Shown here: piece after piece, positions 18,672 to 55,589 of the stretch
Layout: every line of letters begins with the position of its first letter
How positions within the stretch are numbered: the stretch's first letter is position 1
IMG/VR virus record: IMGVR_UViG_3300043179_000079
Location: 1,138 to 65,137 of that record
Reading direction: 5' to 3' (one strand)
Origin: a virus
DNA: 64,000 nt
Notes under the pieces: generated by a model
Told to the model about the DNA's origin: nothing
What the model saw: only the letters and a program-made list of their open reading frames with translations
Databases searched by the model: none
Position numbers and translations under genes: made by a program

Positions 18672-19865
18672 CTAGCAGGCGCCCGAGTGCTCCGCCTTGC
18701 GACACACCGAGCATCTCTCGAACTTACCCAGCACCCTGTCGCCCAGCTCCTTGCGGGCCAGGTGTCCCCCGTGGGGCATCTTGGTCGGGCTCGAAGCGAT
18801 GGAGCGGAAGTTGCCCAGCTCCTGGTTCACGTGCGCGATCGAGCCCTTGGGGGCGGTCATGCCCGGCAGCTTGGGGCGCTTGGTGTTCATCGCGGTGACC
18901 AGGTGGGTCATGTCCGGGTCCGGCTTGCCCTCGGCCTTGGCGGTCGGTTTCTTCACCTCGGGTGGGATCTTCGTCGTCCCCAGCTCCTTGCGGGGCTCCT
19001 TGTCGAACTCGGTGGCGGGCGCCGGGTCGGCGGCCAGGGAGCCGGTCTTCGGGCGGGGGCCGGCGGCCCTCCATGCCTTCGCCATCTTCTTCGGGCCCCT
19101 GTCCGACGGATGGAGGACCGTGGGCTCCCGCTCCATCAGCTTCGAGACCACGTCGTCCGGCGGGGATGTGTGGGACCAGCCCATGCCGCAGTTCCGGCAG
19201 CGGAAGTGCTCCTTCGACCCGAGGTTGCCCAGCAGCATGCCGGGGCCCGAGCAGGTCGGGCACGAGGGGCCGGCGGCGAGGTCGTCGTCCTCGGACTTCG
19301 AGACCTTGGAGCCGGCGGCCGCCATGCGAAAGTGCTCCGCGTACACGCGCCGGGTCTCGTCATCGTGGTGGTCCCCGAGGTGTCCGTGGTCGCGAGACAT
19401 CGAATAGTGGTTGTTGATCACGTGGTTGGACGGATGTACCGTCACGTGGGCCGGCGACGATCCGGCCATCCTGCGTCGAAACCCGTCCCCGTCGAGCGCG
19501 GCCCGGGCCTTGATCTTGGCGTGCTTGTCGTCCTCGGCCATGGCCATCGGGGTGGCGGCAGGTCCCGTCGGCGTGGACTGCACACCGTAGCCCATGGCGG
19601 CGTTCTTCTTCATCGAGTCCTTGTGGATCTTCCAGGCGGCGGCGAAGGCCTTCTCGGGCTCACCCGGGTACTGCGCCTTCAGCTCGTGCATCCTGGCCTC
19701 GCTGAAGCCGGGGGGCGCCTTCTTCTCCAGCTCGGCCTTGGCCAGCTCCTCGGCGGCCGACAGCTCCCTGAGGTGCGCCTCGTGGTCTTCAAGGGCCTTC
19801 TTCAGGGCGCTCGCAAGACCCTTCCTCACCCCGTCAAAGGACCGCGTAGCTGCTGGCTCACTCAT
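18672..19865 (-). CDS. putative processed head-associated protein with zinc ribbons
   Basis: LAKAE, VSKSE, MAKAW motifs; CPTC...CRNC and CSVC; start MSEPAAT after GGGGGAGA. Confidence 0.7.
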   Translation of the reverse strand: MSEPAATRSFDGVRKGLASALKKALEDHEAHLRELSAAEELAKAELEKKAPPGFSEARMHELKAQYPGEPEKAFAAAWKIHKDSMKKNAAMGYGVQSTPTGPAATPMAMAEDDKHAKIKARAALDGDGFRRRMAGSSPAHVTVHPSNHVINNHYSMSRDHGHLGDHHDDETRRVYAEHFRMAAAGSKVSKSEDDDLAAGPSCPTCSGPGMLLGNLGSKEHFRCRNCGMGWSHTSPPDDVVSKLMEREPTVLHPSDRGPKKMAKAWRAAGPRPKTGSLAADPAPATEFDKEPRKELGTTKIPPEVKKPTAKAEGKPDPDMTHLVTAMNTKRPKLPGMTAPKGSIAHVNQELGNFRSIASSPTKMPHGGHLARKELGDRVLGKFERCSVCRKAEHSGAC

Positions 19866-19894
19866 CCGGATTGGTCTCCCCCGCTTCGGGCATG

Positions 19895-19901
19895 AAGATT
19901 G
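19895..19901 (-). promoter_or_regulatory. candidate late-promoter box CAATCTT
   Basis: 29 nt upstream of ATG 19865. Confidence 0.5.
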
Positions 19902-19971
19902 TCCGAGGGTTGACAACAAATCGGTCGGAAAAACTACACGATGGCGCGACGACCCTTACAAGACCGCGCGA

Positions 19972-20728: not shown

Positions 20729-20937
20729 GGGCCCAGAGAAGTCAGCGGAAGGCACGGACATCGATCGACGTGGGGCGCCACCCCCCCGCCGCACGCTGGG
20801 CAGATCCAGCCCCTAGCCTCCACCTGGGGACCAAGGGGCGTGAAGGTCACCCACCCCGCCATGTGCCGAGGGCACCGCCCGCACGTCGAGCCCATGCAGG
20901 CCAGGCACGGCCCGATCGGCAGCAGGTCCTGCGACAC
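20716..20937 (-). CDS. small Cys-rich hypothetical protein
   Basis: CLAC, CGRC, GWICPACGGGVAPHVDRCPC. Confidence 0.6.
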   Translation of the reverse strand: MSQDLLPIGPCLACMGSTCGRCPRHMAGWVTFTPLGPQVEARGWICPACGGGVAPHVDRCPCLPLTSLGPQPR

Positions 20938-21002
20938 GATCTCGGCTCCGACCGCCCCCGGCAGGGGGCGGCAGTTCTATCCTCACCGCTCCGTCCATCC
21001 CT

Positions 21003-21818
21003 CTATCCCTTTTTCTGCCGCAGCAGGTCGTGCTCGCCCCTCAGCCCCATCTCCGCCGCCGAGTTCCGCACCGCCCCGAGGGCGACCTCCAGGGGGACCT
21101 GGTGGGCGTGGGGCTGGAACCCCTCGTCCCCCGGCTCGCTGAGCCTGCCCGTAACCGCCCTGTGGACGGCGTCGTGGAGCACCGTGTTATACTCGCGGTT
21201 GAAGTCCTGGTCCGAGGCGTGCACTCCGATCGACGCCAGCAGCTCGCGCTGCTTGTGCGCCGCCAGGTGCTCCCAGTGGACGGCCCGCATGGCCTCCCTC
21301 TGGGTCCTCTGCCGGCCCAGGCCGCCCATGCGCCGGCCCTCCCCGTAGACCTGGTTGACCTCGGGGTAGGTGAGGGCGTGGGCCAGCTCGTGCGTCTTGC
21401 GCCAGGCGTCCGTGTAGGCCCGGTGCCCTAAGTCCCCGCCCGAGCCCTCCTCGGGGTCCCAGATCATGAGGTGCTTGGTGTCGTAGTTCTTGTTGGCCAG
21501 GTCGGCCCGGCCGTGCTTCCCCCCGGCGTAGTAGGCCTGGTAGCCGTGGTGGGCCAGCAGGCGCTCCACCTCCGGCCCCTTGTGCTCCAGGCCGTGGTAG
21601 AACTTGAGGCTCGGCCTCGACCCGGGCTCCACCCGACCGTAGGGGGCCGCGAACCGTCCGTACTCCTTCGAGCTGCCCGCCACCGAGGCCTGCTCGTTGG
21701 TGGCGTGGGCCTTGCCGCCCCCGAACTCGTCCTTGCGCAGGCGCGACAGCGCCGACATCGAGGTGAGCACGCCGGGGCCCAGGTGGCGCTGGTGGCCGGG
21801 TAGGCGTGCGGGTGGCAC
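21003..21818 (-). CDS. zincin-like metallopeptidase domain protein
   Basis: THELAH (21378-21392) plus downstream WEH; LRKDE near N-terminus; start uncertain. Confidence 0.65.
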   Translation of the reverse strand: MPPARLPGHQRHLGPGVLTSMSALSRLRKDEFGGGKAHATNEQASVAGSSKEYGRFAAPYGRVEPGSRPSLKFYHGLEHKGPEVERLLAHHGYQAYYAGGKHGRADLANKNYDTKHLMIWDPEEGSGGDLGHRAYTDAWRKTHELAHALTYPEVNQVYGEGRRMGGLGRQRTQREAMRAVHWEHLAAHKQRELLASIGVHASDQDFNREYNTVLHDAVHRAVTGRLSEPGDEGFQPHAHQVPLEVALGAVRNSAAEMGLRGEHDLLRQKKG

Positions 21819-21819
21819 G

Positions 21820-22188
21820 GCCTACACCCCTTGAGAGACAAGAGACGCCTGGTCGCTGGTGACACAATGCGTCCGGGTTCACCTTCTCCGCCATCGCTCA
21901 TATTGGTCAGGCGCGCCCCCACATATCTCCAGTACGAAATCCAAAATCTCTCCGCCTCGGCGGTCTCGGCAGGAGAGGAGAAGCCTTCCTCCAAAACCTC
22001 CACCTCAGGCTTCGACCCCTGAACCAGCTATTTTTGTAGCTCTTCTTTCTAAGAGAATGTACGGAAAAATGGGCTGAGATCCTCTTCCATCCCTGACACG
22101 ACTTTCCAACGTAACGCATCTCTCACGTCCGTGGATCAATTAGGGCGTAAACGAAGAACTTAGATGATGTTTTTTGCGACAAGAGCAT
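21820..22188 (-). pseudogene. degraded GIY-YIG homing endonuclease
   Basis: MLLSQKTSSKFFVYALIDPRT*EMRYVGKS...(frameshift)...VLEE...AEAERFWI...LTNMSDGGEG; AT-rich. Confidence 0.8.
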
Positions 22189-23134
22189 CGGAAGCCAACC
22201 ACGCTTCGTCTTCGGGGGTAGAATCTGCCGATACAAAAGGCTCACCCGGAACACCAGGTCTAGCCACCCCTACCTGTGTCCCGACCGAGTACAGGCGCCC
22301 GGCCACCGCCTTCGGCCACACGCTCATCGCCGTCCCGGTCAGGTTCAGGTACCGGGCGTAGGCGACGTCGCTCTCCATGAGGTCCAGACGCTGGGCGGGG
22401 GCGCTGGAGACCTGGGAGGCCTGGAAGCCGCGCGCCTCCAGGAGGTCCTGGCGGCGGCGCATCAGGACGAACACCACGAGGCTGTGCAGGTAGGTCAGGT
22501 GGACCACCTCCCCGCCCACGAAGCACCCGATCTGGTAGGTCTCCCGGAACTGGGCCGACTCCAGGGCCGCCTGCCGGGAGGGCCGGGCGCCCCTGATGGT
22601 CGAGCCGCGCAGGTCCGCCACCGTGCCGGCGGCGATGGTGACGGTCTGCCCGTCCACCTCCAGGACCTCGTGCTGCCGCCCCTCTCGGTCAACCAGGACC
22701 ATGCCCGGCACCACCACCAGCGTGACCGAGGCAGGCAGGACGACCGCGCCGGTGGCCGGGTCGTAGGAGTCCGGGTCGAAGGGGCCGGCCAGGGCGGGCC
22801 ACTGGGTGTCGTCCGGCTCCGAGGTGTCGTGGTGGACGTCCCCGAGCGTGTTGGCGATCTCCACCGACTCCATCAGGCCGATGCTGACGCAGGGCAGGAC
22901 GGGGCCGGCGTACAGCGAGGTGGCCATGACCACCTTGATCTCGGTGCGCTGGAACCACTCCTTGGCCCGGTCGATCTCGCGCTGCCCGTAGCTGCCCTTG
23001 GTCAGCTCGTCCTCGCGGAGGCTGGCGAAGGCGTAGTCGAGCAGCCACGGCTCCCGGCGCAGCTCCCGCAGGCCCTCGACCAGGGCGCCGCGCACTACAA
23101 CATCACTCTGGAAGATCCCGGTAGCTTCCGCCAC
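22160..23134 (-). CDS. putative neck/tail-completion protein
   Basis: Position upstream of sheath; 324 aa; function by synteny only. Confidence 0.6.
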   Translation of the reverse strand: MAEATGIFQSDVVVRGALVEGLRELRREPWLLDYAFASLREDELTKGSYGQREIDRAKEWFQRTEIKVVMATSLYAGPVLPCVSIGLMESVEIANTLGDVHHDTSEPDDTQWPALAGPFDPDSYDPATGAVVLPASVTLVVVPGMVLVDREGRQHEVLEVDGQTVTIAAGTVADLRGSTIRGARPSRQAALESAQFRETYQIGCFVGGEVVHLTYLHSLVVFVLMRRRQDLLEARGFQASQVSSAPAQRLDLMESDVAYARYLNLTGTAMSVWPKAVAGRLYSVGTQVGVARPGVPGEPFVSADSTPEDEAWLASDALVAKNII

Positions 23135-24581: not shown

Positions 24582-25568
24582 TTAGTGGATCGAGGGGTTG
24601 CGGGCGCTGGCGGGGTGCCCGGCCGGGTCCTGCGCCAGGACCATCCCCGAGCGGACGCTCACCCAGGATACGCTGCCGTCCTCGTGCCGGACCTTGACCT
24701 TGCCGTCGTGCTGGGTCCCGACCGGGAGGTTGAGCTTCACGCGACCCGCCTCGGCGCCTCCGATACCCTTCTCCACCGGGGCACCCTCGGCGGCCGGGGC
24801 GGGAGGGGCGGACGGGGGCGGGGCCGCCTCCGTCCTGGGCAGGAGCCTGGCGGCGTCCCGCACGGCGTCCAGCAGCTCGGCCAGGGCCTCGACCACGGCG
24901 GGGGCCCGCTCCTTGAGGGCGGCCAGCTCGCGGGCCCGGCCCTGCATGGCCCTCAGCACGCCGGCCAGGCGCTCGCGGGCCTCGTCGCCCTCCTTAGCGG
25001 CCCTGGCCTTCGAGGCGCCCTCGGTCTCCCCGGAGGCCTGGGCGGCCTCGCGCAGCTCGTCGGCCAGAGAGGCTTGAGCGGGCTTCTGGGTCTGGGGCTC
25101 GACCTCGGCCTTGCCCAGGCCGTCTCCGTACTCCTCGGCCATCTTGGCGCCCTCGGAACGCTCAGCGCTCAGGCTAGCCGCCACCTCGGCCTCTACCTCG
25201 GGGGAGTGCACCACGGCCCGGTCCCCGCCGCGCAGCTTGGCGGCGTACAGGGCCTTGGCGGCCTCGGACAGGCGCGCCCCGACCCCCACCGACACGGTGG
25301 CGCCGGTGGCCTCCTGGTACCTGGCCCGGACGTCCTCCAGCCGGTCTAGGCGGGCGGCGGACACGGTGGCCCGGCCCTCGTCCCCTCCCATCTGCACCAG
25401 GGCCCCTCCGCCCTCGACGCACCAGGACTCGAACACGCGGTTGCCGCGGTCGATGGCCCCGCTAAGGCGGGCCAGCTCCTCGGGCTGGTCGTGCATGGTG
25501 GCCAGCCCCACGAGGCGACCTATCCGGTCGCCATCCCAGGCGATCCACACGCTAGAGTCGAGTTTCAT
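24582..25568 (-). CDS. minimal CRISPR polymerase (mCpol)-like nucleotide cyclase domain plus C-terminal extension
   Basis: WDGDRIG (25527-25535), MGGDEG (25377-25388), TVSVGVG.RLSEA.KAL.AAK..G; followed by GLGKAE. Confidence 0.75.
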   Translation of the reverse strand: MKLDSSVWIAWDGDRIGRLVGLATMHDQPEELARLSGAIDRGNRVFESWCVEGGGALVQMGGDEGRATVSAARLDRLEDVRARYQEATGATVSVGVGARLSEAAKALYAAKLRGGDRAVVHSPEVEAEVAASLSAERSEGAKMAEEYGDGLGKAEVEPQTQKPAQASLADELREAAQASGETEGASKARAAKEGDEARERLAGVLRAMQGRARELAALKERAPAVVEALAELLDAVRDAARLLPRTEAAPPPSAPPAPAAEGAPVEKGIGGAEAGRVKLNLPVGTQHDGKVKVRHEDGSVSWVSVRSGMVLAQDPAGHPASARNPSIH

Positions 25569-26190
25569 AGTAAAATCTCCGATCGCAAGACACACGACCA
25601 CGCTGCACAGAGCGCCGAATTGCGGCCCGATCTACCCCGTAATGCCGGGCAGCAGCTCCCACGGAGTTGAACCGATTGCCCAGGTCGTCACAGACCGCCT
25701 TACCGGGGCGAGAGGCCTCCATGGCCAGACGATGAGCCTGGCTGAGCGGCCTACCGAGCTTGGCTTGCCGAATCTTCTCCTTTGACTCCGGCGACCATAC
25801 CCGATCTCGCGACCACGGAGCCGGGCGTCCAAGAAGCTGCAATGACCTCGCCGCTCGCTGCTCTGGCGTGTACCTGTAACCGGAGGTGCCCCCACCCCCC
25901 TCTGTGGCGTTCGTCAAGCGTCCGCTTCGACCGAGACTCTTGATCCAGGACACCTCCGCCTTGTCCAGCGCCTCACGGCCACCCAAAATCGTCTCAAGGA
26001 CGACCCACCGTGGACGAAGACCCTTGCGTTGTAGACACTGAAGCCATCGGTCACGGTGGGAGTCGTCGTGGATCTTCAAATGCGCCCTTACCCTGGCTTT
26101 GACATCTTGCGTTGTCTGCCCGACATACCTGACCTCGTTGGTCTCAGGATCGATAAGACCGTAAACAAGGCCACAAACTCCGGGCTCCAC
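25552..26190 (-). CDS. GIY-YIG homing endonuclease with NUMOD-like tail
   Basis: VYGLIDP...VRYVGQT...E..WI...LTN.TEGG; WSPESKEKIR; RFNSVGAAARHYG. Confidence 0.9.
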   Translation of the reverse strand: MEPGVCGLVYGLIDPETNEVRYVGQTTQDVKARVRAHLKIHDDSHRDRWLQCLQRKGLRPRWVVLETILGGREALDKAEVSWIKSLGRSGRLTNATEGGGGTSGYRYTPEQRAARSLQLLGRPAPWSRDRVWSPESKEKIRQAKLGRPLSQAHRLAMEASRPGKAVCDDLGNRFNSVGAAARHYGVDRAAIRRSVQRGRVSCDRRFYYETRL

Positions 26191-31543: not shown

Positions 31544-33838
31544 CTATACTACCCTCGTGCTGGCGTACGGGTCAACGAACTTCTCTTCGGGGTCGGGGAG
31601 GGTGTCCGCCGGCCGGTCCTCCGGCTCGATCGGGGGGTCTACGTGGTCCTTCAGGAAGGAGTCCTCCCTGCCCCAGGAGGCGGCCCTGAGGAGGTGGTCG
31701 TACCTGGCGTTGAAGCCCCGGCGCACGTGCTCCCGCTCCCGCGGGTCCCTTATCATACCCAGCCTCGCCTCGAAGACCCTCTTGACCTCGGGGGCCGCCT
31801 TGGACCACCACGCCATGGTGCGCTTGACGTCTCCCGGGCCTCGCTCCTGGTCTTCCCCGGCCAGGGCGCTGTTCTGGTACTGGTCGTAGAGGCTCGTGTA
31901 CGTCCTCCAGTGTCTGCCTGTGCCGTAGTCGTAGCTCATCGCGTTGTCGATGGCGAGGGGGCGCCCCCTCGCCATCATGAGGTTGCCTGGGTGGCGGTCG
32001 GTGTTCTGGGACAGGAAGTCCATCACCGCGATCCTCCGTAGGTCCTCCCTGGCGGTGGCGGACACCCTGAAGCTCTGCTCGTGGTCGGCCTCCGGGTCCA
32101 GGTGCACGGCCAGCATGGGCACCGGGCCCGCGGATCCCCGGGCGAACACCACCGACACCTTCTGGTGCAGGCGGCCGATGCCGGCGGCGTGGTAGAGGGC
32201 CTGGTTGGTCATCTCGGACCACCCCAGCTTGGGGTGCCTCGTGCCGTACTGCCGGTGGTCCTCGTGGTACGGCTTGAGGAGGAAGGAGTGCTGGGCCCCC
32301 TTCATGACCACCTTAGGGGAGACCCCGGTGACGCCCTCGCTCCGATCCTCCACCGTGTTGTCCGGGTGCGCGAGGGAGGCCCGGAGGTCGTCGAACACGG
32401 CCCGGTGCTGCTTTCGCTCCCACGAGGGCTCGGCGTGGTGGTCGGTGGGAGGGGCCTGGGGGTCGTGCGGGTGCGTCTTCCCGTGCATGGCATCGACCTC
32501 GGGCGCGGGGACGGCCTTGGCCAGACCGACCCCCAGGCCCGTAGCCCACGCCCGGTTCACCGAGAAGTCCGCCAGCTCCGAGGACGCTGCCGCCTGCAGG
32601 GCCGACAGCCGGTCCAGGCTGGGCTGCGGGTCAACCCCGTACCGGGCGAGGGCGAGGGCCAGCCGCGCCCGGTCCACGGACCCCAGCCAGGACCTCAGGG
32701 ACCTCTCCCCGTCCACGGTGGCGCGCGGGAGCCCCGCCAGGCGCTCCCCGGGCGGCAGGCGCGCCCACCCCTCGGGCGCCCACACCCGCAGGTAGTAGGG
32801 GGTGAAGCTGTTGGGGTCGTTCGCCGGGTCGAACCCGCGGCCGGCCAGGGCCGACCCCTGGTCGATGAGCTGGACCGGGCGGTCCTCGGACGAGAGGACG
32901 TTCCGGCTGTGCCGGTCGGTCTGACCCAGGACCCAGTCCGCGGCCGCCAGCATGTGCAGGGTGCCGTCCCCGAGCAGGGGGAGCAGCGCCAGCCGCAGGC
33001 CGGCCTGGTCGTCGCGGAAGCGCCGGTACATGGGGGCGAACCCGGCCGCCTCGGAGAGCCACTCGACGGCGGCGTACTGCCGGCCGTCCACGAGGACCAG
33101 GTCCCCGCGCGGGGCGTAGGCGCCCAGGCCCATCCCGTCCAGAGCGTGCCAGAAGGCGGCCTCGCGCTGGCTCTGGGTGGCGGTCTCGTCACGCGCGCCG
33201 GCCGCCGGGGACTGGCGACCCGAGCCGGGCTTGAGCAGGAGGGCGCGGCCGGTCTCGGGGTCATCCGCCAGGACGGCGCCCGCGGCATGCTTGCCCCCCC
33301 TGAGGGAGACGGGGTGGGTGCGCCCCGCCTTGACGGCCCTGGCGATTGCCCCGGCCGCCTCGCGGGCCTCGGGCGCTCCGGGCGCCACCTGCGCCGACTC
33401 CTTGAGGCCCTCGGCCGAGTCGTCCACCACGGCCTCGCTCTTCCGGACGCCCTCGACCGCGGCCAGGCCGCGCAGGGCCAGCCGGTTCTCCTCGGTCGGC
33501 TCCAGCCCGGCGGCGGACAGGGCCGCCGCCTCGTCGTCGCCCTCGTGCAGGACGGCGTGCGGCCGGTGGCTCGGGTCGTCGTGCAGGCCGCCCTCCCGGA
33601 GGAGGCGCGCCGCCTCCATCAGGGAGTCCACCCCGAGGGACCCCCTCGGGAACTCGGGCTCCTCCTCGTGCCACGCGTCGAACATCTGGTGGTGGGCCAG
33701 GCGCTCCAGCAGGCTCTGCGCCGACGGCGGCGACGGGATGAACGCCCACGGGGCGCGGTCCTGCGCCCAGCGGAACAGGTCATCGTCGGTGGCCAGCTCG
33801 TGGCCCTCCCCGGTGTACAGGTTGGTGATGCGGTACAT
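31544..33838 (-). CDS. tandem HipA/PI3-4K-like kinase polyprotein
   Basis: Kinase 1: LLKP, REAA, DRHSRN, LIDQG; kinase 2: LLKPY, WSE, DRHPGN, AIDNA; linkers VRKSE and LAKAV. Confidence 0.8.
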   Translation of the reverse strand: MYRITNLYTGEGHELATDDDLFRWAQDRAPWAFIPSPPSAQSLLERLAHHQMFDAWHEEEPEFPRGSLGVDSLMEAARLLREGGLHDDPSHRPHAVLHEGDDEAAALSAAGLEPTEENRLALRGLAAVEGVRKSEAVVDDSAEGLKESAQVAPGAPEAREAAGAIARAVKAGRTHPVSLRGGKHAAGAVLADDPETGRALLLKPGSGRQSPAAGARDETATQSQREAAFWHALDGMGLGAYAPRGDLVLVDGRQYAAVEWLSEAAGFAPMYRRFRDDQAGLRLALLPLLGDGTLHMLAAADWVLGQTDRHSRNVLSSEDRPVQLIDQGSALAGRGFDPANDPNSFTPYYLRVWAPEGWARLPPGERLAGLPRATVDGERSLRSWLGSVDRARLALALARYGVDPQPSLDRLSALQAAASSELADFSVNRAWATGLGVGLAKAVPAPEVDAMHGKTHPHDPQAPPTDHHAEPSWERKQHRAVFDDLRASLAHPDNTVEDRSEGVTGVSPKVVMKGAQHSFLLKPYHEDHRQYGTRHPKLGWSEMTNQALYHAAGIGRLHQKVSVVFARGSAGPVPMLAVHLDPEADHEQSFRVSATAREDLRRIAVMDFLSQNTDRHPGNLMMARGRPLAIDNAMSYDYGTGRHWRTYTSLYDQYQNSALAGEDQERGPGDVKRTMAWWSKAAPEVKRVFEARLGMIRDPREREHVRRGFNARYDHLLRAASWGREDSFLKDHVDPPIEPEDRPADTLPDPEEKFVDPYASTRVV

Positions 33839-33841
33839 AGC

Positions 33842-34909
33842 TTAGGGGGCCCCCTTCGAGCGGTACATCGGGACGGACCCGTCGAACAGGTGCTGGCGCC
33901 CCTCGGCCGCCGCGTCCAGGAAGGCCGCCCGGCGGTTGAAGTTCTGGGAGACGTGGTCGCGCAGGCCGGGGTGCCGGATCAGGTCCAGCCTCCTGTCCAT
34001 GGCCGCCTTGACCGCGGGGGACGCGCCACGCCACCACGCCAGGGCAGGGCCGTACGCCGCAGCGCCAGCCTCCTCGCGCACCCGGACGTCGTCCATGCCC
34101 CAGTCAGCAGTGGGGCGCGGGATGGCGGGTACGAGGTTCTCCCAGGCCTGGTCCCGGTGGTAGGACAGCACCCCGTCGTCGCGGTTCATCCTCGCGACGT
34201 GGCGCGGGTGCCACTTGGGCGCCGCGTACTGGAAGGCCAGGGCGTGGTCGATGGCGAGGGGGCGCTGCTCGGGGTCGGGCCCCAGGAGTAGGTTGTCCCC
34301 GTGCCGGTTCGGCATCCCGGTCAGGAAGTCCATCAGGACCATCTTCCTGACGTGGTCGCCCATGGAGGACGGCCCGTCCCCCCTCGGGGAGACGCCCGTC
34401 TGCATGTCGCCCACGGAGGTGTGGCCGGGCGCCATGTGGACCACCACCAGGGGGTGCCGTCCGAACCCGTCGTCGTGGTGCACCACGTGGACGCGCTGGT
34501 GGAGGTCGCCGATGCCCCCGGCGTGGTACAGCGCCTGGCTGGTCATCTCGGACCAGCCCCCGATGGGGTGCCTCCCGTACCCCCGATGCAGGTCGCGCGG
34601 GATCCTCTCGAAGTAGGGCTTCACCAGGAAGCGGTCCCTGGCCCCGGCCTGCGCGGTCGAGGCGACCTCGAACACGGCCTTGTGGGAGCGGACCATGCCC
34701 ATGCCGCCCTGCCGGTGCTGGGGGGCGCCGCGGACGCTCCGGACCGGCCCCGGCCAGGACTGGACGCGCGAGAAGGCCTCCACGAGGTGGCCGTGGGCCG
34801 GCGGGTGGAGCCCCCGCTCCCGCTCGTGGTCCACCAGGGACGGGCCCTCCTTGGCCTGGGCCTCCATGACCCGGCCGACGCCCTCCAGGCGCTTGGCGAG
34901 GCTAGCCAC
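33842..34909 (-). CDS. HipA/PI3-4K-like kinase, probable pseudokinase
   Basis: LVKPY, GWSEMT.QALYHA.GIG.LHQ as in kinase 2; catalytic DRH is NRH (34301-34309). Confidence 0.75.
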   Translation of the reverse strand: MASLAKRLEGVGRVMEAQAKEGPSLVDHERERGLHPPAHGHLVEAFSRVQSWPGPVRSVRGAPQHRQGGMGMVRSHKAVFEVASTAQAGARDRFLVKPYFERIPRDLHRGYGRHPIGGWSEMTSQALYHAGGIGDLHQRVHVVHHDDGFGRHPLVVVHMAPGHTSVGDMQTGVSPRGDGPSSMGDHVRKMVLMDFLTGMPNRHGDNLLLGPDPEQRPLAIDHALAFQYAAPKWHPRHVARMNRDDGVLSYHRDQAWENLVPAIPRPTADWGMDDVRVREEAGAAAYGPALAWWRGASPAVKAAMDRRLDLIRHPGLRDHVSQNFNRRAAFLDAAAEGRQHLFDGSVPMYRSKGAP

Positions 34910-37496
34910 GGCGCCTCATGGGGTGCCTCGGGCCGACCGACGCCTCCTCCGAGGCCCGGGAGGAGTCGGGGGAGTGCTGGGCGGCCTCGCGGACGAGCCG
35001 CACGTGCTCCGGGCCGGCCTCCACGTGCCGCATCAGGGCCCCGACCTGGTGGGTGGGGTGGCGGCCGTCGCGGGTCAGGCGCGCGGCGGCGAGCAGGCGC
35101 AGCGTGTACGGGCTCCGGATGCGCGCCACGGCGGCCTGCGACACGGCCGGGTTGTCGTCCAGCGCGGCCCGCAGCAGGTCTCCCTCGCTCGGGTTGGGTG
35201 AGGCCAGCACCGCCAGCGCCCGCTCGTCGGGGTCGTGGTGGTCGAGGAGGGGGTCGGATTTCTGAAGACTTTTTCCTCCTCCTCTAGCAAATCTTTCCAC
35301 CTGTTCCTCCTCTTCTTCATCCGACAAACGAGGTATATTGTCACGATATCTGCGTTGTTCATGCCATGCGTGACCGATCTCATGTAGAATAGAGACCTCG
35401 ATCTCCCTTCTCATCTCTGGTTCGGTCACGTATCTGGCGTGTTCGGCAAGGGAAGGGGTGTGGAGGACGATATGAGGAGCGGCGTGCGTAAACCTGACGA
35501 AGGTGCTTACCGCGTTGTGGTTTTTTTCTGGCAGTTTGGTTGCGTAATGGATTGTGGGCTCGATCATCCCCAGCTTACGAAAGGTGTTTTTGTGGTCCTT
35601 TAGGACACGTTGCACCATGTCCACCATAGAAGGAGGCGGAGACGGGTCCTTTTGGTAGCCACGCATGACGGGGCGTCTTGCCATCTGGAGCCAGTGTTCT
35701 GGGTCGTATGTAGATTTCTCCAGGCACTCCTGCGACGCGAGGAGGTCGTCCTCGCTCTTCCCCACGGGGGCGGCGCCGACGTCCGCGGGCAGGAGCTGGT
35801 CGGCGTACGCCCGCACGTGGTGGTACGCGCGCTTCATGGCGTCATCGACCAGGCGGGCCCCCTGCTCGTCCCGCTCGTTGGCGGAGTGGTACCTCCGCCT
35901 GGTCTGCGGGTCGTTCACGTAGTTGTGCAGCAGCGCGACGCACTCCTCGTTGAAGGACCGGCCGTCGGGCTGGTAGCCGCGGTGCTCGGCGAACCTCTCG
36001 ACGTGGGACCTGAGGGCCTGAGGCAGAGAGCCGACGAGGCGCTCCGCCAGCCGCCAGCGCGCGGGCAGGCCGTGCCGGACCTCGACCTCCCGCATGGCGA
36101 GGTGGAAGTCCTCGTGCAGGGCCGTCGCCGCGGCCGAGTTGTGGTGCTGCGCGTCGTACGGCCTGGCCTCCCCGGCGAGCGCGAAGGCCGCCCTGGACCC
36201 CGGGACGCTGCTGGCGGTCCCCATGAGGCCCGGCCTGCTGCCGCTCTGGACGTCCACGGCGTCGCTGGCGCTCCTGGCCCGGACCGCGGACGCCCGGTCG
36301 GCGTTGTAGGCGTCCAGGTGGCGGGCGTGCGCCGCCCCTATCAGCCTCATCCGCAGACCGGCCTCCTGGGTGGTGGTCACGAAGGGCGTCTCCCGGCGCG
36401 GCTCGATGCCCAGGCCCTTGAACGCGATCTGGGGCTGGAACTTCTCCAGCGGGACCGACTTGAGGGTGTAGGAGTAGGGCGGATACACGGACCCCTGCTT
36501 CTCGCTGGGCGAGTAGGCTAGACCGTGCTTCCGCGCCAGGGCCTCGTGCACCCTCCTGGCCCCCTCGGTGTGGGTGCCGCCGGTCACCGAGTCCACTCCG
36601 AGCACGTGCTTGGCGTGGACGAGGGCGGCCTCGTACATGGCAGTCCCCAAACCCTTGCCTCGGAACGCCCTGGCGAGAGATGAGTGGATCTCGATCCCGG
36701 GCCGCCTTCCGGGACGCGGCTTCCACACCTCCAGCCTCCCCACCATGTCGCCGCGGTGGCGCAGGCGCACCTCGAAGATGCCGTGGTCGGGGTTGTCGAA
36801 CAGCTCCATGTCGGTATCGCCGCCACGGTGGGTCTCGGGGAGGAGGTGCCCGTAGTCGTAATACCAACTGCCGGCGCCCTTCTGCCTGCCCGTGGGCAGG
36901 TCCGCTATCGCCTTTCCGAGGGGCTGCGTCGATGACGCCCGGCGCACGTACTGGCGCACCACGTTATCCGGCCCCTCGGGGCCGTGCAGGTAGTCCCACA
37001 CCTCGGGGTCGAGCCCCTGGTGGACCGGGTGGAAGGTCCACTCGGCGGCCTCCCGGTCGGGGTCGAGCAGGCCGTGGGCCTGCCCCGAGACCAGGGCGGT
37101 GAACACGTGCAGCGTCTTGCCGTCCGGGGTCGTGCTCGTGCCCGCGGGCGTGACCGACATCGGGCGCAGGCCGGTCTCCTCGAACAGCTCGCGGCGCGCG
37201 GCCTCCTCGGGCAGCTCGCCCTCGTCCGCGTGCCCGCCCGGCAGGGACCAGCGGCCGTTGTCGTGCCGCCTCCCCAGCAGCAGGCGCCCGTGGGCGTCGT
37301 ACGCCATCACGAGGGCCACCTCCCGCGGCCCCTCGGACTTCTTGACGTCTCGGAATCCGGAGAAGTCGTCCCTGGCGACGAACCCGGCCTTCACCTCGTC
37401 GGCGTGGTCGTCGCAAGCCGGGACGTACGCCATGCCCTCGGCGTGGAGCACCTTCTTGGTGGCGTCCCTCTTGCACCTATCGCAGCGCTCGGCCAC
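34902..37496 (-). CDS. multi-effector polyprotein: Zn-finger, NUDIX, GNAT, zincin, zincin, helical repeat
   Basis: Nudix box GHADEGELPEEAARRELFEETGL; GNAT AFRGKGLGTAMY; LHEDFH and LHEIGH; linkers VKKS, LGKA, LEKF, VGKS, LEKS, LQKS. Confidence 0.85.
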   Translation of the reverse strand: MAERCDRCKRDATKKVLHAEGMAYVPACDDHADEVKAGFVARDDFSGFRDVKKSEGPREVALVMAYDAHGRLLLGRRHDNGRWSLPGGHADEGELPEEAARRELFEETGLRPMSVTPAGTSTTPDGKTLHVFTALVSGQAHGLLDPDREAAEWTFHPVHQGLDPEVWDYLHGPEGPDNVVRQYVRRASSTQPLGKAIADLPTGRQKGAGSWYYDYGHLLPETHRGGDTDMELFDNPDHGIFEVRLRHRGDMVGRLEVWKPRPGRRPGIEIHSSLARAFRGKGLGTAMYEAALVHAKHVLGVDSVTGGTHTEGARRVHEALARKHGLAYSPSEKQGSVYPPYSYTLKSVPLEKFQPQIAFKGLGIEPRRETPFVTTTQEAGLRMRLIGAAHARHLDAYNADRASAVRARSASDAVDVQSGSRPGLMGTASSVPGSRAAFALAGEARPYDAQHHNSAAATALHEDFHLAMREVEVRHGLPARWRLAERLVGSLPQALRSHVERFAEHRGYQPDGRSFNEECVALLHNYVNDPQTRRRYHSANERDEQGARLVDDAMKRAYHHVRAYADQLLPADVGAAPVGKSEDDLLASQECLEKSTYDPEHWLQMARRPVMRGYQKDPSPPPSMVDMVQRVLKDHKNTFRKLGMIEPTIHYATKLPEKNHNAVSTFVRFTHAAPHIVLHTPSLAEHARYVTEPEMRREIEVSILHEIGHAWHEQRRYRDNIPRLSDEEEEEQVERFARGGGKSLQKSDPLLDHHDPDERALAVLASPNPSEGDLLRAALDDNPAVSQAAVARIRSPYTLRLLAAARLTRDGRHPTHQVGALMRHVEAGPEHVRLVREAAQHSPDSSRASEEASVGPRHPMRRRG

Positions 37497-37508: not shown

Positions 37509-38354
37509 CTACACGTTCCCGGCGAAGAGCTTCTGCCCCACCACAGCCTTGATCTTTCCGACCAGCGCGTCCCTCTTCTTCTCCAGGTCGGTGATTCGCT
37601 GCAGGTACACCTGGGGACCCGGGCCCGAGAACGACTCCGACAGCCCGTCGATCCCGATGCTGTGGCCGGTGGTCTGGGCGTAGGTGGCCGCCAGCATGGA
37701 GAGTATGTCGATCGCCGCGATGGTCCCGATCAGGTCGTTGACGACCTTGGGCACCATGCCGTCCGGGAAGCCCGCCATGACCTCGAAGTGCCACCAGCTC
37801 CCGATCCAGTGGCTGGCCCCGAACGCCTGCAGCATGGCCAGTCCGGCCCCCGAGGCGGCCGGGACGACCGCTCCGGACCCGGTGGACCCGATCACGTACG
37901 GCATCAGGTTGATCTGGCCCTTGTAGAGCTGGCCGACGTCGATCCACTCCTTGGGGACCGTGAACACATCCTCCCCGTTTGAAAGTTGGATGGTCAGGCT
38001 CTTGATGGCCCAGATGGGCCGCACCGCCAGGCGGAAGAACCCGTTGGACCTCCACTCCGACTGGTCGAAGGGCTCCTTGGTGTCGTACTGGGTCGGCATG
38101 ATGGTGGCGTGCGTCAACTGCTCCGCCATCGTCACCGCCCGCTCGATGTACTCCTTGAGCAGCTCGTTGGTCATCCTCTCCCGCTTGCCCGTCTCCGGGT
38201 CCGGGACCTGGGAGACCAGGGAGAGGCCGAACAGGTGCAGCGCCCGCAGGTCGTCCGGCTCAAGCAGGGGCTCGGTCCTCAGCCAGGGGCTCTCCTTCCC
38301 CTTGGGGGGCCACGTAGCCGTGGCCAGGAGCTTGGCGGCCTCCAGGTCCGCCAC
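37509..38354 (-). CDS. putative head-tail adaptor/neck protein
   Basis: Position after capsid; S..IDGLS.S.S...Y..RI..L pattern. Confidence 0.7.
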   Translation of the reverse strand: MADLEAAKLLATATWPPKGKESPWLRTEPLLEPDDLRALHLFGLSLVSQVPDPETGKRERMTNELLKEYIERAVTMAEQLTHATIMPTQYDTKEPFDQSEWRSNGFFRLAVRPIWAIKSLTIQLSNGEDVFTVPKEWIDVGQLYKGQINLMPYVIGSTGSGAVVPAASGAGLAMLQAFGASHWIGSWWHFEVMAGFPDGMVPKVVNDLIGTIAAIDILSMLAATYAQTTGHSIGIDGLSESFSGPGPQVYLQRITDLEKKRDALVGKIKAVVGQKLFAGNV

Positions 38355-40082: not shown

Positions 40083-41489
40083 TTATGACGTGAGGTTATC
40101 GCAGATCACGTTCTTCCTGGGCTGCATGATGGCCAGCGTGGCGAACCGGAAGAAGGCCTCCGGGGACGCCAGCTCGGTCACCGCCAGCTTGAGGCGCGTG
40201 AAGGGCGCCAGCTCGCGCATCTCCATGGTGTTCCCCTGGACGAGGAACCCGGTGACGAACCCCGGGATCTTGTTGCCGAGGTCGTGGAAGACCGTGGTCG
40301 CCCCGGTCGAGGAGGCCACCCGGCCGATGTACTTGGCCGAGGCCTCGCTGCCGCCGGCCGCGCTGCGGTACACGTTGTGGTACCGGTGCGTGCCCGAGCC
40401 GTGCGTGATGGTGACGACGACCTCGTCGCCGTCCGCCACGATGGTCTCGGCCACCGCCGCCGACTTGCCCGACTCGCCCTTCTCGTTCGCCGAGGTGACG
40501 TAGTAGGTGTAGACCTCGTCCTTGAGGAACGGGGTCACGATGCCCGCGGTCGTGGTGCTGACCGCCGAGGTCAGCGTCGGGGTGCCCGGGCTGTTGCGGC
40601 GGATCGGGGCGGGGCCCGTCTTGCCGGAGAGGAAGCGGCTCTCCTCCAGCTTGACCGTGCCGCCCGAGACGAACTGGCGGCGGAGGTCCGCGCCGGTCGC
40701 GTCCTGGGGGGTGCCCGCCAGGATGATGCGCTCCTTGTCGAACGCGATCTTGTTGTAGGTCGCGTGGACGAGGGGGTCGATGAGGAGCAGGTCGGCCTTG
40801 CCGAAGTTCATGCGGCTGCGCACCGCGGCGTTCTCGATGATGGTCTGCGTCAGCGTTCCGCCGCCGCTCACGACCACCGAGGTGCCGCTGCCGTACTCGC
40901 CGAACATGAGGTCCTGCGCCTGACGCTGCGCGTCCGACTGCCGGACCTGGAGGTCCACGCCGTGCATGTTCGGGAGCTGCGGGACCGCCAGCGGGTTGCC
41001 GTCGAAGACGCCCCCGTTGGAGAAGTCCGCGAGCCCGCGGAACAGGTCGAACTCGATGTCGCCCGCGATCTTGAGGGCGGCCGAGGCGGCCTCCCGCTCG
41101 TCGCTCTTACGGCCGTCGCTCGTCTCGACCATGGTCGAGGCGATCGTCACCTTGCGGGTGTGGCTGTAGAAGCACATCGGGACGGTCACCCGGACGTAGT
41201 CCGAGATCTCCTCTTCGCCGACGTTGCCTTCGAGCTGGGCCGAGCCACCGAAGATGCCGTACGACAACTGGCGGTTGAACTGCCAGAGCGTAGACTTCGC
41301 GGGGCGCGAGTCCACCATCTTCTGCAGCACCATGTCCTTCTCCTCGAAGGTCACGTTCTGCATGACCGGCGACAGGTCCTCGACCTGCAGCGCGCTGCCC
41401 TGGGTCAGGTTGCCTGGGGCGGTCCCTGCGTAGGTACCGGCCTCCAGCGCCTTCACCAGGTCCTGGATGTTCTTGACGAGGTCGTTCAT
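40083..41489 (-). CDS. major capsid protein (Twort/SPO1-like HK97 fold)
   Basis: 468 aa; G.ALQVEDL...TF...PA.ST...F.R...G....EG; short propeptide ending LVK-A. Confidence 0.9.
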   Translation of the reverse strand: MNDLVKNIQDLVKALEAGTYAGTAPGNLTQGSALQVEDLSPVMQNVTFEEKDMVLQKMVDSRPAKSTLWQFNRQLSYGIFGGSAQLEGNVGEEEISDYVRVTVPMCFYSHTRKVTIASTMVETSDGRKSDEREAASAALKIAGDIEFDLFRGLADFSNGGVFDGNPLAVPQLPNMHGVDLQVRQSDAQRQAQDLMFGEYGSGTSVVVSGGGTLTQTIIENAAVRSRMNFGKADLLLIDPLVHATYNKIAFDKERIILAGTPQDATGADLRRQFVSGGTVKLEESRFLSGKTGPAPIRRNSPGTPTLTSAVSTTTAGIVTPFLKDEVYTYYVTSANEKGESGKSAAVAETIVADGDEVVVTITHGSGTHRYHNVYRSAAGGSEASAKYIGRVASSTGATTVFHDLGNKIPGFVTGFLVQGNTMEMRELAPFTRLKLAVTELASPEAFFRFATLAIMQPRKNVICDNLTS

Positions 41490-48996: not shown

Positions 48997-51900
48997 TTAT
49001 GCCGCGGTCGGGGGGGCTGGCGCCGGGGGTGCCTCGTGGTGCAGGGCGATGGGGCCCTCCCGTCCGGGGACCGCCGAGTGGGCGAGCATCGGGGTCTGCC
49101 CCACCGCGTGGGCGCGCTGCCCGCCCGGGGTCAGCTTCTGCCTCTTGGCCTCGTACAGGGCGCGGTCGGCGTGCTCGGGGGAGTGGCCCAGGCCGATCGA
49201 CATCGACAGCTTGTGGGTCCCCCCGATCGGCGGCAGGGCGTCCATCTTGTCGCGGAGGGCGTGCACGAACCGGAGGGCGTGCTCGTAGGACGGCACGTGC
49301 GCCACGAACTCGTCCCCGCCGTTCCGGTAGAGGTCCTGGAGGTCCGGGTCCCGGAACAGCTTGCCGTGCCCCCGGCCGACCGACTCGTCCATGGCCTCCC
49401 GAGAGGCGCGCCCGAAGGCCTCGATGGCCTGGTCCCCGGCGTCGTGGCCGTGCTGGTTGTTGATGCTGGAGAAGTCGTTTCCGTCCATCGAGATGTAGAC
49501 GCCGGGCCTGCGGCGCGCCCGGAACTCGCTGAAGGCGTACTTGTTCCCGAGGCCGGGGGCCATCTTGTCCTCGTAGATGTGCCGCGTCAAGGCCCGCTCG
49601 ACGTCCGGGTGGACGTGGCCGGCCTGCACCGCCGCGCGGATGTGCTGCAGGGCGGTGTCCGGGCCCATCCTCTCCCCCTCCCCCTTGGACAGGCCGCGCG
49701 CCGGCCTAAGGGTGGCGGCGCCCGTCCGGGCGTTGCGCGCCATCAAGCGGACCAGGCTGGGGGGCACCGGCGACCCGTTCAGGTAGGCCGCGTCCCCGGA
49801 CACCTCCAGGGTGGCGGGGGCGGACATCCCGGCCCGCTGGTACTCGTACACCTCGACGCCGCCCTCGGCGGGCGCCTGGGCGCCCGCCGGTGCCGCCGGC
49901 TGCCGCGGCGCGTCCGCCCGCTCGCCGCCGGCCTCGACCTCGTCGCGCGGGTAGTCGTGGTCGTGCTGGACCCGCAGGTGGGGGCTCGCCTCCAGGCTGT
50001 GCATCATGGCCACCGCCCGCTCGTCCGCCGGCCCCTCGGGCAGGAGGCGCGACAGGACGCCGTGGTAGTCCTCCAGGTGGCGGACCGATCCGTCGTGGAC
50101 CATGTACCTCCCGACCCTGACGGCGCCGCCGTCGTGGAGGGCGTGCACCTCCCTGACGCTCGGCCCGCCGTGGTACAGCGCCTCCCCGGCCCCCTCCGAG
50201 GGCAGGGCCGCCAGGTGTGAGCGCAGCTCGGCCGTCAGGCGCTCCAGCCGGGGGGCCGAGCCGGCCATCATGGCGGTGGCCTGTCTCCCGGCGGTGCGCC
50301 TCTCCGCGTGGTCCAGCAGGCGGGGGGCCAGGAAGGCGTGGTACAGCATGGACGCCGGGACCTCCCCGAAGGCCTCCGCGTACCGGCGGTGCACCAGGGC
50401 GGTGCGCAGCGGCAGGTCCGAGTGGGCCTCCGGGACGGGCTCCCCCTTGGCCATGAAGGGGTCGATCGCCTCCCAGTAGGGGGCGTGGGTGGTCAGCTCG
50501 TTGGCCGCCAGGCCGCCTGGCATGTTGCGGAGGCGCTCGTGCGGGGCGATGGCCATCCAGTGCCGCCAGAAGGCGGGGAAGATGGCGTCCTCCCGGGTCG
50601 CGAAGTGCTTCCCCCATACCGGGTGCTCCACCATGTGCTGCACCGCCGGGTGGTTCTTGGAGTACCACCGGTCGATGGAGTCGAGCAGGTGGGTGTGCCG
50701 CGGGTCCCACAGCAGGTTCTTCACGTACTCGATGGTGTCCGAGTCCCGGCGGATACGGAGGCCGAACAGGTGGCGCAGGAAGTGGGTGTCCGGCACCGTG
50801 ACGTTGCCGCCGCCCATCATGCCCCAGGCGTAGCGCGAGGTCTTGGGGGCCAGGCCGTGCGGGTGGATGCCCTCGTACCGGCCCGGGTCCGGCTTGCCCT
50901 TGCCGGCAGCGACCTTGCGGCGCAGCTCGCTCCGGACGCTCTCGATCTTGTGCCGCATCAGCTCGCCGACCGCCGACCGGGCGTCGGCGCCGTGCCTGTT
51001 GGCCAGCTCGACCATCTGGTCGTGCATCTGGTGGTAGCGCAGGATGTTGACGCCCTTCTCTTTGGCCATGGCGTACCGCTGCAGGACGCCCGCCTGTGTG
51101 TGAGCGCCGGGGTTTGCAATAAAGTGCGACCGAGCGTGCTCGGGGTACTCGTCGGGCCGGTTGAGCTGCTTCCAGTGCTGGATGGCGGGCTCGAAGCCGG
51201 GCTTGCTGGGGTCGTGCCCGGTGTGGGCCATGGCGTCCACCAGCTTGGAGTACATCAGCTCCTGGATCGGGACCGGGGTGTTGGGGCTCAGCTCCGAGAA
51301 CAGGACGCTGTGCATCACGACCTCGGACGGCAGCCTCCTCTGCCTCAGGAGGTCGTGCGTCCGCACCCACCCGTGCATGGCGCGTCCGTGCGCTTCCTCG
51401 ATTTTCGGGTCGGACAGGATCTTCTTGAAGTGCTCGTCGGTGCCGTCGTGCGCCGGCAGGTAGAGGCGGAGGTCGCCCCGGGGCGTCCGCATGACCCCGG
51501 AGGTCTCGTCCACGAACGGGCGGGCCAGCTTGGGGTTCTCCTTGATCGGGGCCCCCTGCACGGTGAGGCCCGCGGGCTTGACCGACACCCCCGGCAGGGT
51601 CTGCTGGCGGGCCGCCTTGGGCTTCGCCTGCTCCCTGGCCGGCTTGGGCAGGGCCATGGGCCGACGAGCCTCCGTCTTCTTCTGGAGGGCGCCCCCCTGG
51701 ACCAGCGAGCCCGGGGACGAGGCCCCGTAGCCGGCCTCCAGGGCCTTGCTCAGCTCGGCGGGAAGCTCGGGGTCGGCCGACACCTCGACCGAGCCGGCCA
51801 GGCGGGAGGCCTCCCGCTTCTCCGTCCGCTTGCCGTCCTCGACCACCCCGCTCAGGCAGGTGCGGTTGGCCGGGCGCACGGTGGCGGCCACGGCCCGGGC

Positions 51901-54831: not shown

Positions 54832-55589
54832 CCGCCGCGCTGGCGGGCGTACTCGTCGTGGTCGGGGGCGACGAACCTCACGCCGCCACCGGCCCCGAAC
54901 CCGTACCCGGGCAAGAGGATGGTCTGGGTGCACCTGCAGTTCGGGTGCAGGCCCAGGACGCTCGGCGCCGGCCCCCCGCGCTTGTGGTACCCGCGGTCCA
55001 GCTCCGACAGCTTCCAGACCCGAGGGGTGACGCCGTCCTCCAGCATGTGGAGCCTCTTGCACTCCTCGCACAGGTAGCCGTCCCGGACCACCACGAAGTA
55101 CACGGTAGGGTCCCTGTCCCCCCTGGCGGCCGCGATCTGCCCGACCGCCTCCAGGCTGCCCAGGTTCCTGGCCGCGGTCGCCTCGGTGTTGGCCACCCGC
55201 TCCACGACCGCCGTCAGGCGCGTCAGCACGCCCTCCAGGGCGTCCCTCAGGGCCCCCCGGACCTCGGGGGTCATCACGCCCTTGGCGCCGCGCACGACCC
55301 CGTCCACCACCCGCGTCACGGCCGCCTGGGCGGCCTCCTGGTGGGAGTCCATGTAGCCGGCGGCCACCCGCCGGATGACCTCGGCCGCCGACGCCCTGGG
55401 GACCGCCCCTCCCTCCCGCACGGCGCCCTCGTAGAGCCCGGGTATGGTGAACCGCCGGTCCACCGTGACGTACAGGCGCTTGTCGCCCCTCGGGGCCGCC
55501 ACGAGGCCCATCCGGATCTTGGCCCTGCCGAAGAGGCGGCCGACCGCCGCCCGGGCGGCGGCCGCGAGCCTGTCCGCCGCGTCGGCCAC
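54828..55589 (-). CDS. MuF-like head morphogenesis protein
   Basis: RVANTE...CEEC...LHPNCRC. Confidence 0.8.
   Translation of the reverse strand: MADAADRLAAAARAAVGRLFGRAKIRMGLVAAPRGDKRLYVTVDRRFTIPGLYEGAVREGGAVPRASAAEVIRRVAAGYMDSHQEAAQAAVTRVVDGVVRGAKGVMTPEVRGALRDALEGVLTRLTAVVERVANTEATAARNLGSLEAVGQIAAARGDRDPTVYFVVVRDGYLCEECKRLHMLEDGVTPRVWKLSELDRGYHKRGGPAPSVLGLHPNCRCTQTILLPGYGFGAGGGVRFVAPDHDEYARQRGG

Follow-up and report, generated by a model that had tools for sequence, protein, structure and literature searches.

A head-module gene of an Mx1-like myxophage with a putative cargo polyprotein whose modules are joined by prohead-protease-like sites

Six modules in one reading frame

A 64-kb stretch of viral DNA (the window; ~70% GC) was analyzed out of a 67.7-kb IMG/VR viral contig, IMGVR_UViG_3300043179_000079, which has a completeness estimate of 41%. 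Judged from sequence comparison, the window is a fragment of a large uncultured myxophage resembling Myxococcus phage Mx1. An open reading frame (ORF) on its minus strand, at 34902-37496, runs uninterrupted through 864 codons and encodes six modules. We propose that its product is probably a polyvalent cargo polyprotein encoded in the head module of this phage, one that would be packaged into the prohead, cut there by a separate protease, and ejected into the host. An earlier sequence-only reading had described the ORF as a six-module polyprotein, and that map, with a zinc finger, an intact Nudix box, a GNAT motif F-R-G-K-G-L-G, and a helical repeat, was recovered in a single frame. The modules are listed below, all on the minus strand, with slashes at putative cut positions.

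37338-37496, minus strand: module 1, aa 1-53, small zinc knuckle CxxC...CxxH (C5, C8, C28, H31), ending VKK/SE
36912-37337, minus strand: module 2, aa 54-195, NUDIX hydrolase with complete Nudix box (PF00293), ending LGK/A
36441-36911, minus strand: module 3, aa 196-352, GNAT acetyltransferase (Acetyltransf_3, Acetyltransf_1), ending Y-x-L-K/S and L-E-K/F
35757-36440, minus strand: module 4 ("z1"), aa 353-580, HExxH...EE...R domain, candidate divergent gluzincin, ending VGK/SE
35715-35756, minus strand: 14-residue spacer, aa 581-594, between VGK/S and LEK/S, read from sequence
35259-35714, minus strand: module 5 ("z2"), aa 595-746, minimal domain with HExxH and a predicted zincin fold, LEK/S to LQK/S, low-GC cassette
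34902-35258, minus strand: module 6, aa 747-864 plus stop, HEAT-like helical repeat (D-H-H-D-P-x-E-R ... D-x-x-P-x-V), defined by homologues

The sites that bound these modules are VKK/S (K53), LGK/A (K195), TLK/S (K346), LEK/F (K352), VGK/S (K580), LEK/S (K594), and LQK/S (K746); all of them had been noticed before except TLK/S, which is additional. Each of the six modules has separate homologues elsewhere. We rejected the idea that the ORF is a chance open frame produced by high GC content, since every segment has homologues and the GC content at third codon positions (GC3) is 0.90-0.98 outside z2.

Domain-wise profile searches recognized the NUDIX and GNAT modules, whereas z1 and the helical tail had no Pfam match, z2 stayed below threshold, and the zinc knuckle matched weakly (DUF7455, E = 0.027). 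The four zinc-knuckle residues are invariant in two internal modules (residues 380-430 of P0076 and 143-193 of P0081), which are flanked by K-[AST] sites within these two unrelated large proteins. In module 2, the Nudix box G-x5-E-x7-R-E-L-x-E-E-x-G-L is complete at about residues 87-110, and PF00293 matches aa 58-161 with an E value of 7e-21 (75.1 bits against a cutoff of 21.1). PHROG nudix families also match, and the best Nudix match in PDB has an E value of 1e-6. For the NUDIX subfamilies (ADP-ribose hydrolase, Ap4A hydrolase, RppH, MutT, NudC), the best NCBIfam scores were at most 35 bits against cutoffs of 95 to 475; because no subfamily reached its cutoff, a substrate cannot be assigned, and the ADP-ribose derivatives, Ap4A, or (p)ppGpp named by the sequence-only reading were a guess.

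The GNAT matches span aa 232-318 (Acetyltransf_3, E = 1.6e-7, 32.6 bits, cutoff 25.4; Acetyltransf_1, E = 9e-6, 26.4 bits, cutoff 20.7), with F-R-G-K-G-L-G as motif A. An N-terminal extension, K-A-I-A-D-L-P-x-G ... Y-D-Y-G-H-L-L-P, is conserved in this module, of which one to three copies are present in each of P0004, P0005, P0006, P0016, and P0002 of Mx1. Its best E value against PDB sequences was 0.3, and by sequence it is too divergent for a target to be assigned. The helical tail has eight homologous copies (in P0004, twice in P0008, and in P0046, P0079, P0082, P0086, and P0103), often beside a NUDIX domain; no Pfam, NCBIfam, or PHROG family matched it, and HEAT repeats appeared only faintly, in homologues. 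We infer the enzyme activities and targets of all modules.

Two HExxH motifs, each with a downstream Glu, had led to the proposal of two zincins. Both motifs are present, HEDFH at 461-465 with EE at 517-518 in z1 and, in z2, HEIGH at 705-709, which is followed by an acidic stretch (727-731) and by E734. The structural claim stood for z2, whose neighbors in structure searches were all zincins. For z1, the HExxH...EE...R signature held up but no solved zincin matched.

Seven stand-alone homologues of z2, 150 to 412 aa long, were found, and H705, E706, H709, E730, E734, and a V-E..A motif are invariant in the eight sequences. An AF2 model (predicted local distance difference test [pLDDT] score, 85) places HExxH on a helix at 93-120 and E730/E734 on the next helix, 127-139 in model numbering. 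The best VIA match was 3e11 (Z 7.5; root mean square deviation, 3.1; 98 residues aligned), followed by YbeY, TTHA0227, Wss1, selecase, and SPRTN at Z 6 to 7.5; LF and IrrE were also among the top VIA neighbors. Atlas gave template modeling (TM) scores of 0.5 to 0.63 to Zincin_1, M48, SprT-like, and M78 clusters, and all Pfam matches were below threshold. The model thus indicates that z2 has a zincin fold, and metal binding and protease activity are predicted.

The base composition of z2 sets it apart from the rest of the ORF. Its GC3 is 0.546, against 0.90-0.98 in the other five modules and the spacer. Codon by codon, third positions are all G or C through E593; codons with A/T endings run from K594 (AAA) to K746 (AAA), and G/C resumes at S747. 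The insert therefore spans the Lys of LEK/S to the Lys of LQK/S. On this codon evidence, z2 is a foreign, lower-GC zincin gene that was recombined in frame at a putative cut site, with the site duplicated.

The z1 family is larger. A word-indexed protein search found only three relatives; the family came to light in an exhaustive search of representatives and comprises at least 137 cluster representatives (50% identity) at E ≤ 1e-3. Most are multidomain proteins of 400 to 2,900 aa, the longest 2,933 aa. Alignments of 40 to 81 homologues show no variation at H461, E462, H465, and E518; at E517 and R533 one alignment shows none and another very little. No match to z1 was found in Pfam, NCBIfam, or PHROGs. 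The AF2 model, built on a 71-sequence alignment, has a pLDDT of 94; Foldseek returned no match in PDB, and searches of AFDB clusters and BFVD gave no convincing one. A wide VIA search yielded nothing beyond helical-hairpin rows and, at Z 5.4, an LF-like Certhrax domain, and Atlas and AFDB showed a weak resemblance in shape to the MA clan (Peptidase_MA_2, DUF1570, M48) at TM scores of 0.37 to 0.43. Because there is no PDB match and the TM scores are just 0.37 to 0.43, we call z1 a candidate divergent gluzincin.

Among 40 z1-bearing proteins, NUDIX and PI3_PI4_kinase domains are each present in 21; other partners are GNAT, mCpol, PBECR5, ART-PolyVal, InPase, SAM lyase, and HicA. The domain is thus abundant and confidently folded, has no solved or curated relative, and co-travels with NUDIX, PI3/4-kinase-like, and mCpol domains. 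As a separate observation, a late-region protein of the window (24582-25601, minus strand) opens with an mCpol (minimal CRISPR polymerase) domain (PF18182, E = 3.9e-11), with LGK/AEV directly after it; mCpol is fused to z1 in P0010 and P0013.

A lysine site shared by module borders and head proteins

The borders of the 864-aa protein share a motif that recurs throughout its relatives. We counted 237 instances of the pattern [LVMFI]-x-K-[SAT]-E across 109 homologous proteins, a 9-fold excess over the 26.2 ± 4.8 occurrences (maximum, 39) in 200 composition-preserving shuffles. The tripeptide KSE is enriched 4.6-fold, level with invariant catalytic motifs, and 79% of K[SA]E instances have a hydrophobic residue at P3. 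Domain cores hold 13% of the motifs against 35% of positions, which is a depletion. In individual maps (P0004 to P0019 and Mx1) the motif stands at nearly every module border; P0016, for example, reads VKK/SED, GNAT, ALK/SEL, z1, VQK/SED, z1, VLK/SED, NUDIX. The sites lie in the low-pLDDT ends of the z1 and z2 models, consistent with accessibility. Because each module has independent homologues and the motif is strongly enriched, the modules and their borders go beyond chance. Elsewhere in the window, a 415-aa protein (18672-19919, minus strand) with no family match has 8.9% Lys, versus 1.5 to 5% in its neighbors, and four K-[SA]-E sites, including LAK/AEL and VSK/SED.

The same type of site is present in the head proteins encoded upstream. 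The minus-strand order is terminase, portal, protease protein, scaffold-like protein, capsid protein, a gene of about 281 codons, the polyprotein ORF, a 355-aa gene, a kinase-like gene, and later the tail sheath, as follows.

58789-60726, minus strand: large terminase, head module
55589-57769, minus strand: portal, head module
48997-52314, minus strand: 1105-aa putative prohead protease protein (putative cutter), 37% identity to Mx1 WNM70322
41527-42396, minus strand: scaffold-like Pro/Ala/Ser-rich protein with six h-x-K-[SA] sites (h, hydrophobic)
40083-41489, minus strand: major capsid protein, phrog_752 (E = 3e-52), 56% identity to the Mx1 capsid protein
37509-38354, minus strand: ~281-aa conserved gene, phrog_772, labelled "tail fiber protein" (E = 5e-20)
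34902-37496, minus strand: polyprotein ORF, 864 aa, GTG at 37496 to stop at 34902
31544-34909, minus strand: two genes, for a 355-aa kinase-like paralogue and a 764-aa PI3/PI4-kinase-like protein (PF00454 match)

Classical substrates of prohead proteases are the N-terminal parts of capsid proteins, scaffolds, and the protease's own tail. Sites of the border type were found in all three places. The capsid protein has an N-terminal site in three phages, DLVK/ALEAG in the window, ELRK/AMEAG in Mx1, and DLLK/ASEAG in the metagenomic relative L004. The scaffold-like protein has six sites, and its counterparts in Mx1 and L004 have six and eight, respectively. In the 1105-aa protein, LSK/ALEAG directly follows the protease domain and is kept in Mx1 and in two short homologues. 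A proven cleavage site has the same form: HK97 gp4 cuts gp5 at K103/S104 (PMC10275583), in the context T-F-N-K/S-L, which is of the h-x-K/[SA] type.

The 1105-aa protein consists of a putative protease in its first ~160 aa, LSK/ALEAG, a region of about 700 aa conserved with Mx1, LSK/GE, and a C-terminal GGDEF domain that is intact (Pfam, E = 1.4e-8). In Mx1 a nucleotide cyclase is encoded by a separate gene, two positions downstream of the protease gene. The Mx1 counterpart, WNM70322, was annotated "putative prohead protease" by the authors of that genome. Atlas features of the protease domain, which reflect protein-language-model neighbors, score 0.94 to the S78, S77, and S80 clusters. A search for short homologues of the domain gave four unannotated proteins, and alignments show invariant His columns and, where the sequences cover the motif, a Ser in Y-S-I-E-G. 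The Mx1 annotation, the language-model neighbors, the conserved His and Ser columns, and the gene position together make this protein a putative prohead protease.

Presence of the sites can be separated from presence of z1. The Mx1 genome is complete and has no z1, yet its polyprotein homologue, scaffold-like protein, and capsid protein keep the sites. We tried z1 as the enzyme cutting the sites and rejected it on that ground. Self-processing by the embedded HExxH modules is disfavored because Mx1 keeps the sites without z1 and because z2 is a recent insert. The sequence evidence points to a separate prohead protease as the processor.

Processing, delivery, and competing explanations

We propose the following course of events. 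The polyprotein would be synthesized in the late phase of infection and incorporated into the prohead, where cuts would release the zinc knuckle, the NUDIX hydrolase, the GNAT, the z1 HExxH domain, the small zincin, and the HEAT-like domain as separate small proteins. The released modules would remain inside the capsid and be delivered to the host along with the DNA, and the cut-site linkers would double as in-frame junctions for the exchange of enzyme cassettes among phages. Because the modules are joined by capsid-protease-like sites and the gene lies among head genes, a single gene probably provides the phage with several small enzymes to pack and inject. The polyprotein claim of the sequence-only reading has thus gained strong comparative support (the border motif in more than 100 relatives; sites in capsid, scaffold-like, and protease proteins; a cassette lying between two sites), while the cleavage itself we infer. 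As for function, the anti-defense set proposed earlier is possible, and so is host reprogramming (signaling, with mCpol, GGDEF, and kinase domains nearby); the two are equally compatible with the data.

Several observations weigh against cleavage by a prohead protease. The protease domain had no match in Pfam, NCBIfam, PHROGs, or PDB sequences (phmmer and profile searches), and its alignment to HK97 gp4 by hhalign was not significant (probability, <1%); that alignment paired Y-S-I-E-G with the Ser region of gp4 and R-P-A-N with F-P-A-N. Three of the seven sites of the 864-aa protein (LGK/AI, TLK/SV, and LEK/FQ) have no acidic residue at P2'. Some of the motif could also reflect inheritance of conserved domain ends, such as Y-x-L-K-S-E closing the GNAT or L-x-K ahead of z1, and not retention for cleavage. 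The prohead proteases of T4 and SPN3US mostly remove N-terminal propeptides and do not dice multi-enzyme chains (PMC10052503). In the literature searched, we found no proteomic, N-terminal sequencing, or expression evidence for the window phage, Mx1, or Mx1-like phages.

An alternative processor would be the chain itself, with z1, z2, or both cleaving the K-[SA] linkers either inside the capsid or once injected. Zincin-like peptidases are a hub domain of polyvalent proteins, and autoproteolysis was proposed by Iyer et al. for those that carry an MPTase (PMC5512222). The model of z2 has a protease-like zincin fold, and L350 is nearly invariant, and K352 invariant, immediately before every z1. 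We nevertheless consider self-processing unlikely, since Mx1 has the same sites in its homologue, scaffold-like, and capsid proteins with no z1, P0005 and P0006 have sites without z1, and z2, as a recent insertion, cannot have been the original processor. The site is also carried by the capsid and scaffold-like proteins, and these are classical substrates of a prohead protease.

The chain might instead act whole, as a multidomain effector that is packaged or cytoplasmic, like N4 vRNAP or ArdC, with K-[SA]-E serving as charged flexible linkers or docking motifs. Several polyvalent proteins are transferred at full length (PMC5512222). A plain linker, however, needs no fixed Lys, hydrophobic P3, or small P1' and would not explain a 9-fold enrichment, and the motif recurs in the capsid N terminus and the scaffold-like protein in the form of the proven HK97 site (PMC10275583); an uncleaved effector therefore seems to us improbable. 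The product could also remain in the infected cell as a late nonvirion enzyme, with tasks such as nucleotide housekeeping and acetylation while particles assemble. In Mx1, genes for thymidylate synthase and dNMP kinase are interspersed in the same region, and because these metabolic genes lie among its head genes, gene position alone is no proof of packaging. Set against this are the synteny beside structural genes in four phages, a domain repertoire typical of polyvalent proteins, the motif shared with capsid proteins, and the fusion of NUDIX to portal proteins in other phages (phrog_15528), and we regard a nonvirion role as very unlikely.

We also consider a broader version of the prohead-protease reading, at somewhat less than even odds. 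The HK97-type site would be both a release signal for injected enzymes and a universal in-frame junction, so that any enzyme flanked by h-x-K/[SA]-E could be recombined into the cargo polyprotein and would then be packaged, excised, and delivered automatically, across a widespread uncultured clade of large phages (at least 137 cluster representatives). The z2 cassette would be an example of such a plug-and-play system caught in the act. Should a prohead protease really cut at the linkers, a single gene would provide an entire set of small enzymes for injection, and that set could be read from sequence by cutting at the motif, a rule that would predict the ejected proteome of an uncultured phage clade. 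It would also explain how polyvalent proteins come apart, still a matter of conjecture in Iyer et al. 2017. Insertion of a cassette at a site would offer new effectors a simple route into the virion payload, and plug-and-play cassettes would be the phage counterpart of cassette exchange in polymorphic toxins. The modules are good candidates for new host-takeover or counter-defense activities in phages of Myxococcota. Because Mx1 is culturable, the central claim is directly testable.

Known systems, relatives, and neighboring genes

By its domain content and position, the 864-aa protein qualifies as polyvalent as defined by Iyer et al. 2017 (PMC5512222), because it unites unrelated effector-type domains in one viral chain, lies in the head module, and has homologues with PBECR5, ART-PolyVal, and InPase. 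The polyvalent proteins of phages and conjugative elements described there likewise combine many unrelated enzyme domains (GNAT, zincin-like HExxH, kinase) in one chain and are encoded with the late virion genes; they are presumed to be delivered together with the DNA and have been likened to viral polyproteins. In contrast, the two HExxH modules of the window match neither Pfam MPTase-PolyVal nor any LPD family, and NUDIX appears in that paper only as a neighbor or fusion partner of InPase domains. Iyer et al. favor embedded peptidases as processors, whereas the evidence in the window points to a separate prohead protease. Assemblin-like peptidases are C-terminal in their polyvalent proteins, whereas the window protease is N-terminal in another multidomain protein. 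In the passages of the paper that were searched, no explicit inter-module cut-site motif in common with the capsid protein was found described.

Phages that process and eject head proteins offer a second comparison. Polyvalent proteins are already known, as is prohead-protease processing of ejected head proteins in T4, phiKZ, and SPN3US (PMC10052503). The T4 internal proteins IPI-III and Alt with gp21, and the phiKZ and SPN3US proteins with gp175 and gp245, resemble our proposal in that they are packaged in the head, have a consensus site also present in the capsid protein, are cut in the prohead, and are ejected (PMC10052503, PMC5694885). Their proteases cut after Glu (AXE or LxE), whereas the putative P1 residue in the window is Lys and the sites separate whole enzyme modules. 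HK97 gp4/gp5 shares the hydrophobic P3, Lys at P1, and Ser or Ala at P1', with the site in the N-terminal part of the capsid protein (PMC10275583). Unlike the window phage, HK97 has no cargo polyprotein; the window protease is fused to ~950 further residues, including GGDEF, and has no significant match to gp4. In the searched passages of the polyvalent-protein paper and in the further literature searched, we did not find described a capsid-shared Lys site between enzyme modules, the use of such a site as a cassette junction, or the z1 family.

Mx1 was the only relative of the window among deposited phages in nucleotide and tblastn searches. A megablast search with 30 to 45 kb of the window against 50,697 phage records gave no match, tblastn matches were limited to Mx1 and one Nudix box of a Pantoea phage, and a peptide-pattern scan of viral contigs turned up no relative. 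The two phages differ in GC content (55.5% in Mx1 versus ~70%; PMC10720576) and have the same head-gene order, with a 1479-aa "NUDIX hydrolase" and then a "kinase" at the equivalent place in Mx1. L004 and L006 keep this head-gene order as well. This Mx1 protein (WNM70333; OR576727) is syntenic with the 864-aa protein, shares GNAT and NUDIX modules with it at 34.7% identity over the matched parts, and carries MKK/AE, ALK/SE, LKK/SE, and LEK/SE sites. Unlike in the window, its GNAT precedes NUDIX, and z1, z2, the zinc knuckle, and the HEAT-like tail are absent. By eye, WNM70333 (L001, 8617-13056) also contains an SLT-like (transglycosylase-like) L-E-S-x-F-G stretch shared with P0005 and a ParB-like D-G-N-H-R stretch, both absent from the window ORF.

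Downstream of the polyprotein ORF, the start of the 355-aa gene overlaps its stop by 8 nucleotides, which suggests translational coupling. Matches to the 355-aa and kinase-like proteins sit in the same polypeptide as z1 in P0015 and P0019. Because of these fusions, the polyprotein ORF, the 355-aa gene, and the kinase-like gene are read as a split version of one array. The gene that follows the polyvalent gene encodes a PI3/PI4-kinase in L004 and is an unannotated 338-aa gene in the metagenomic relative L006.

Upstream of the polyvalent gene, a gene for 281 to 284 aa is found in the window, Mx1, L004, and L006; two further genes intervene in L004 and one small gene in L006. The product of this ~281-aa gene (37509-38354) may belong to the head or neck, or it may assist the cargo as a chaperone or docking factor. 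Finally, L004, the relative that encodes P0004, has adjoining NAMPT/NAPRTase-like and small NUDIX genes at 20795-22746, which resemble the phage gene pairs for NAD salvage (NAD reconstitution).

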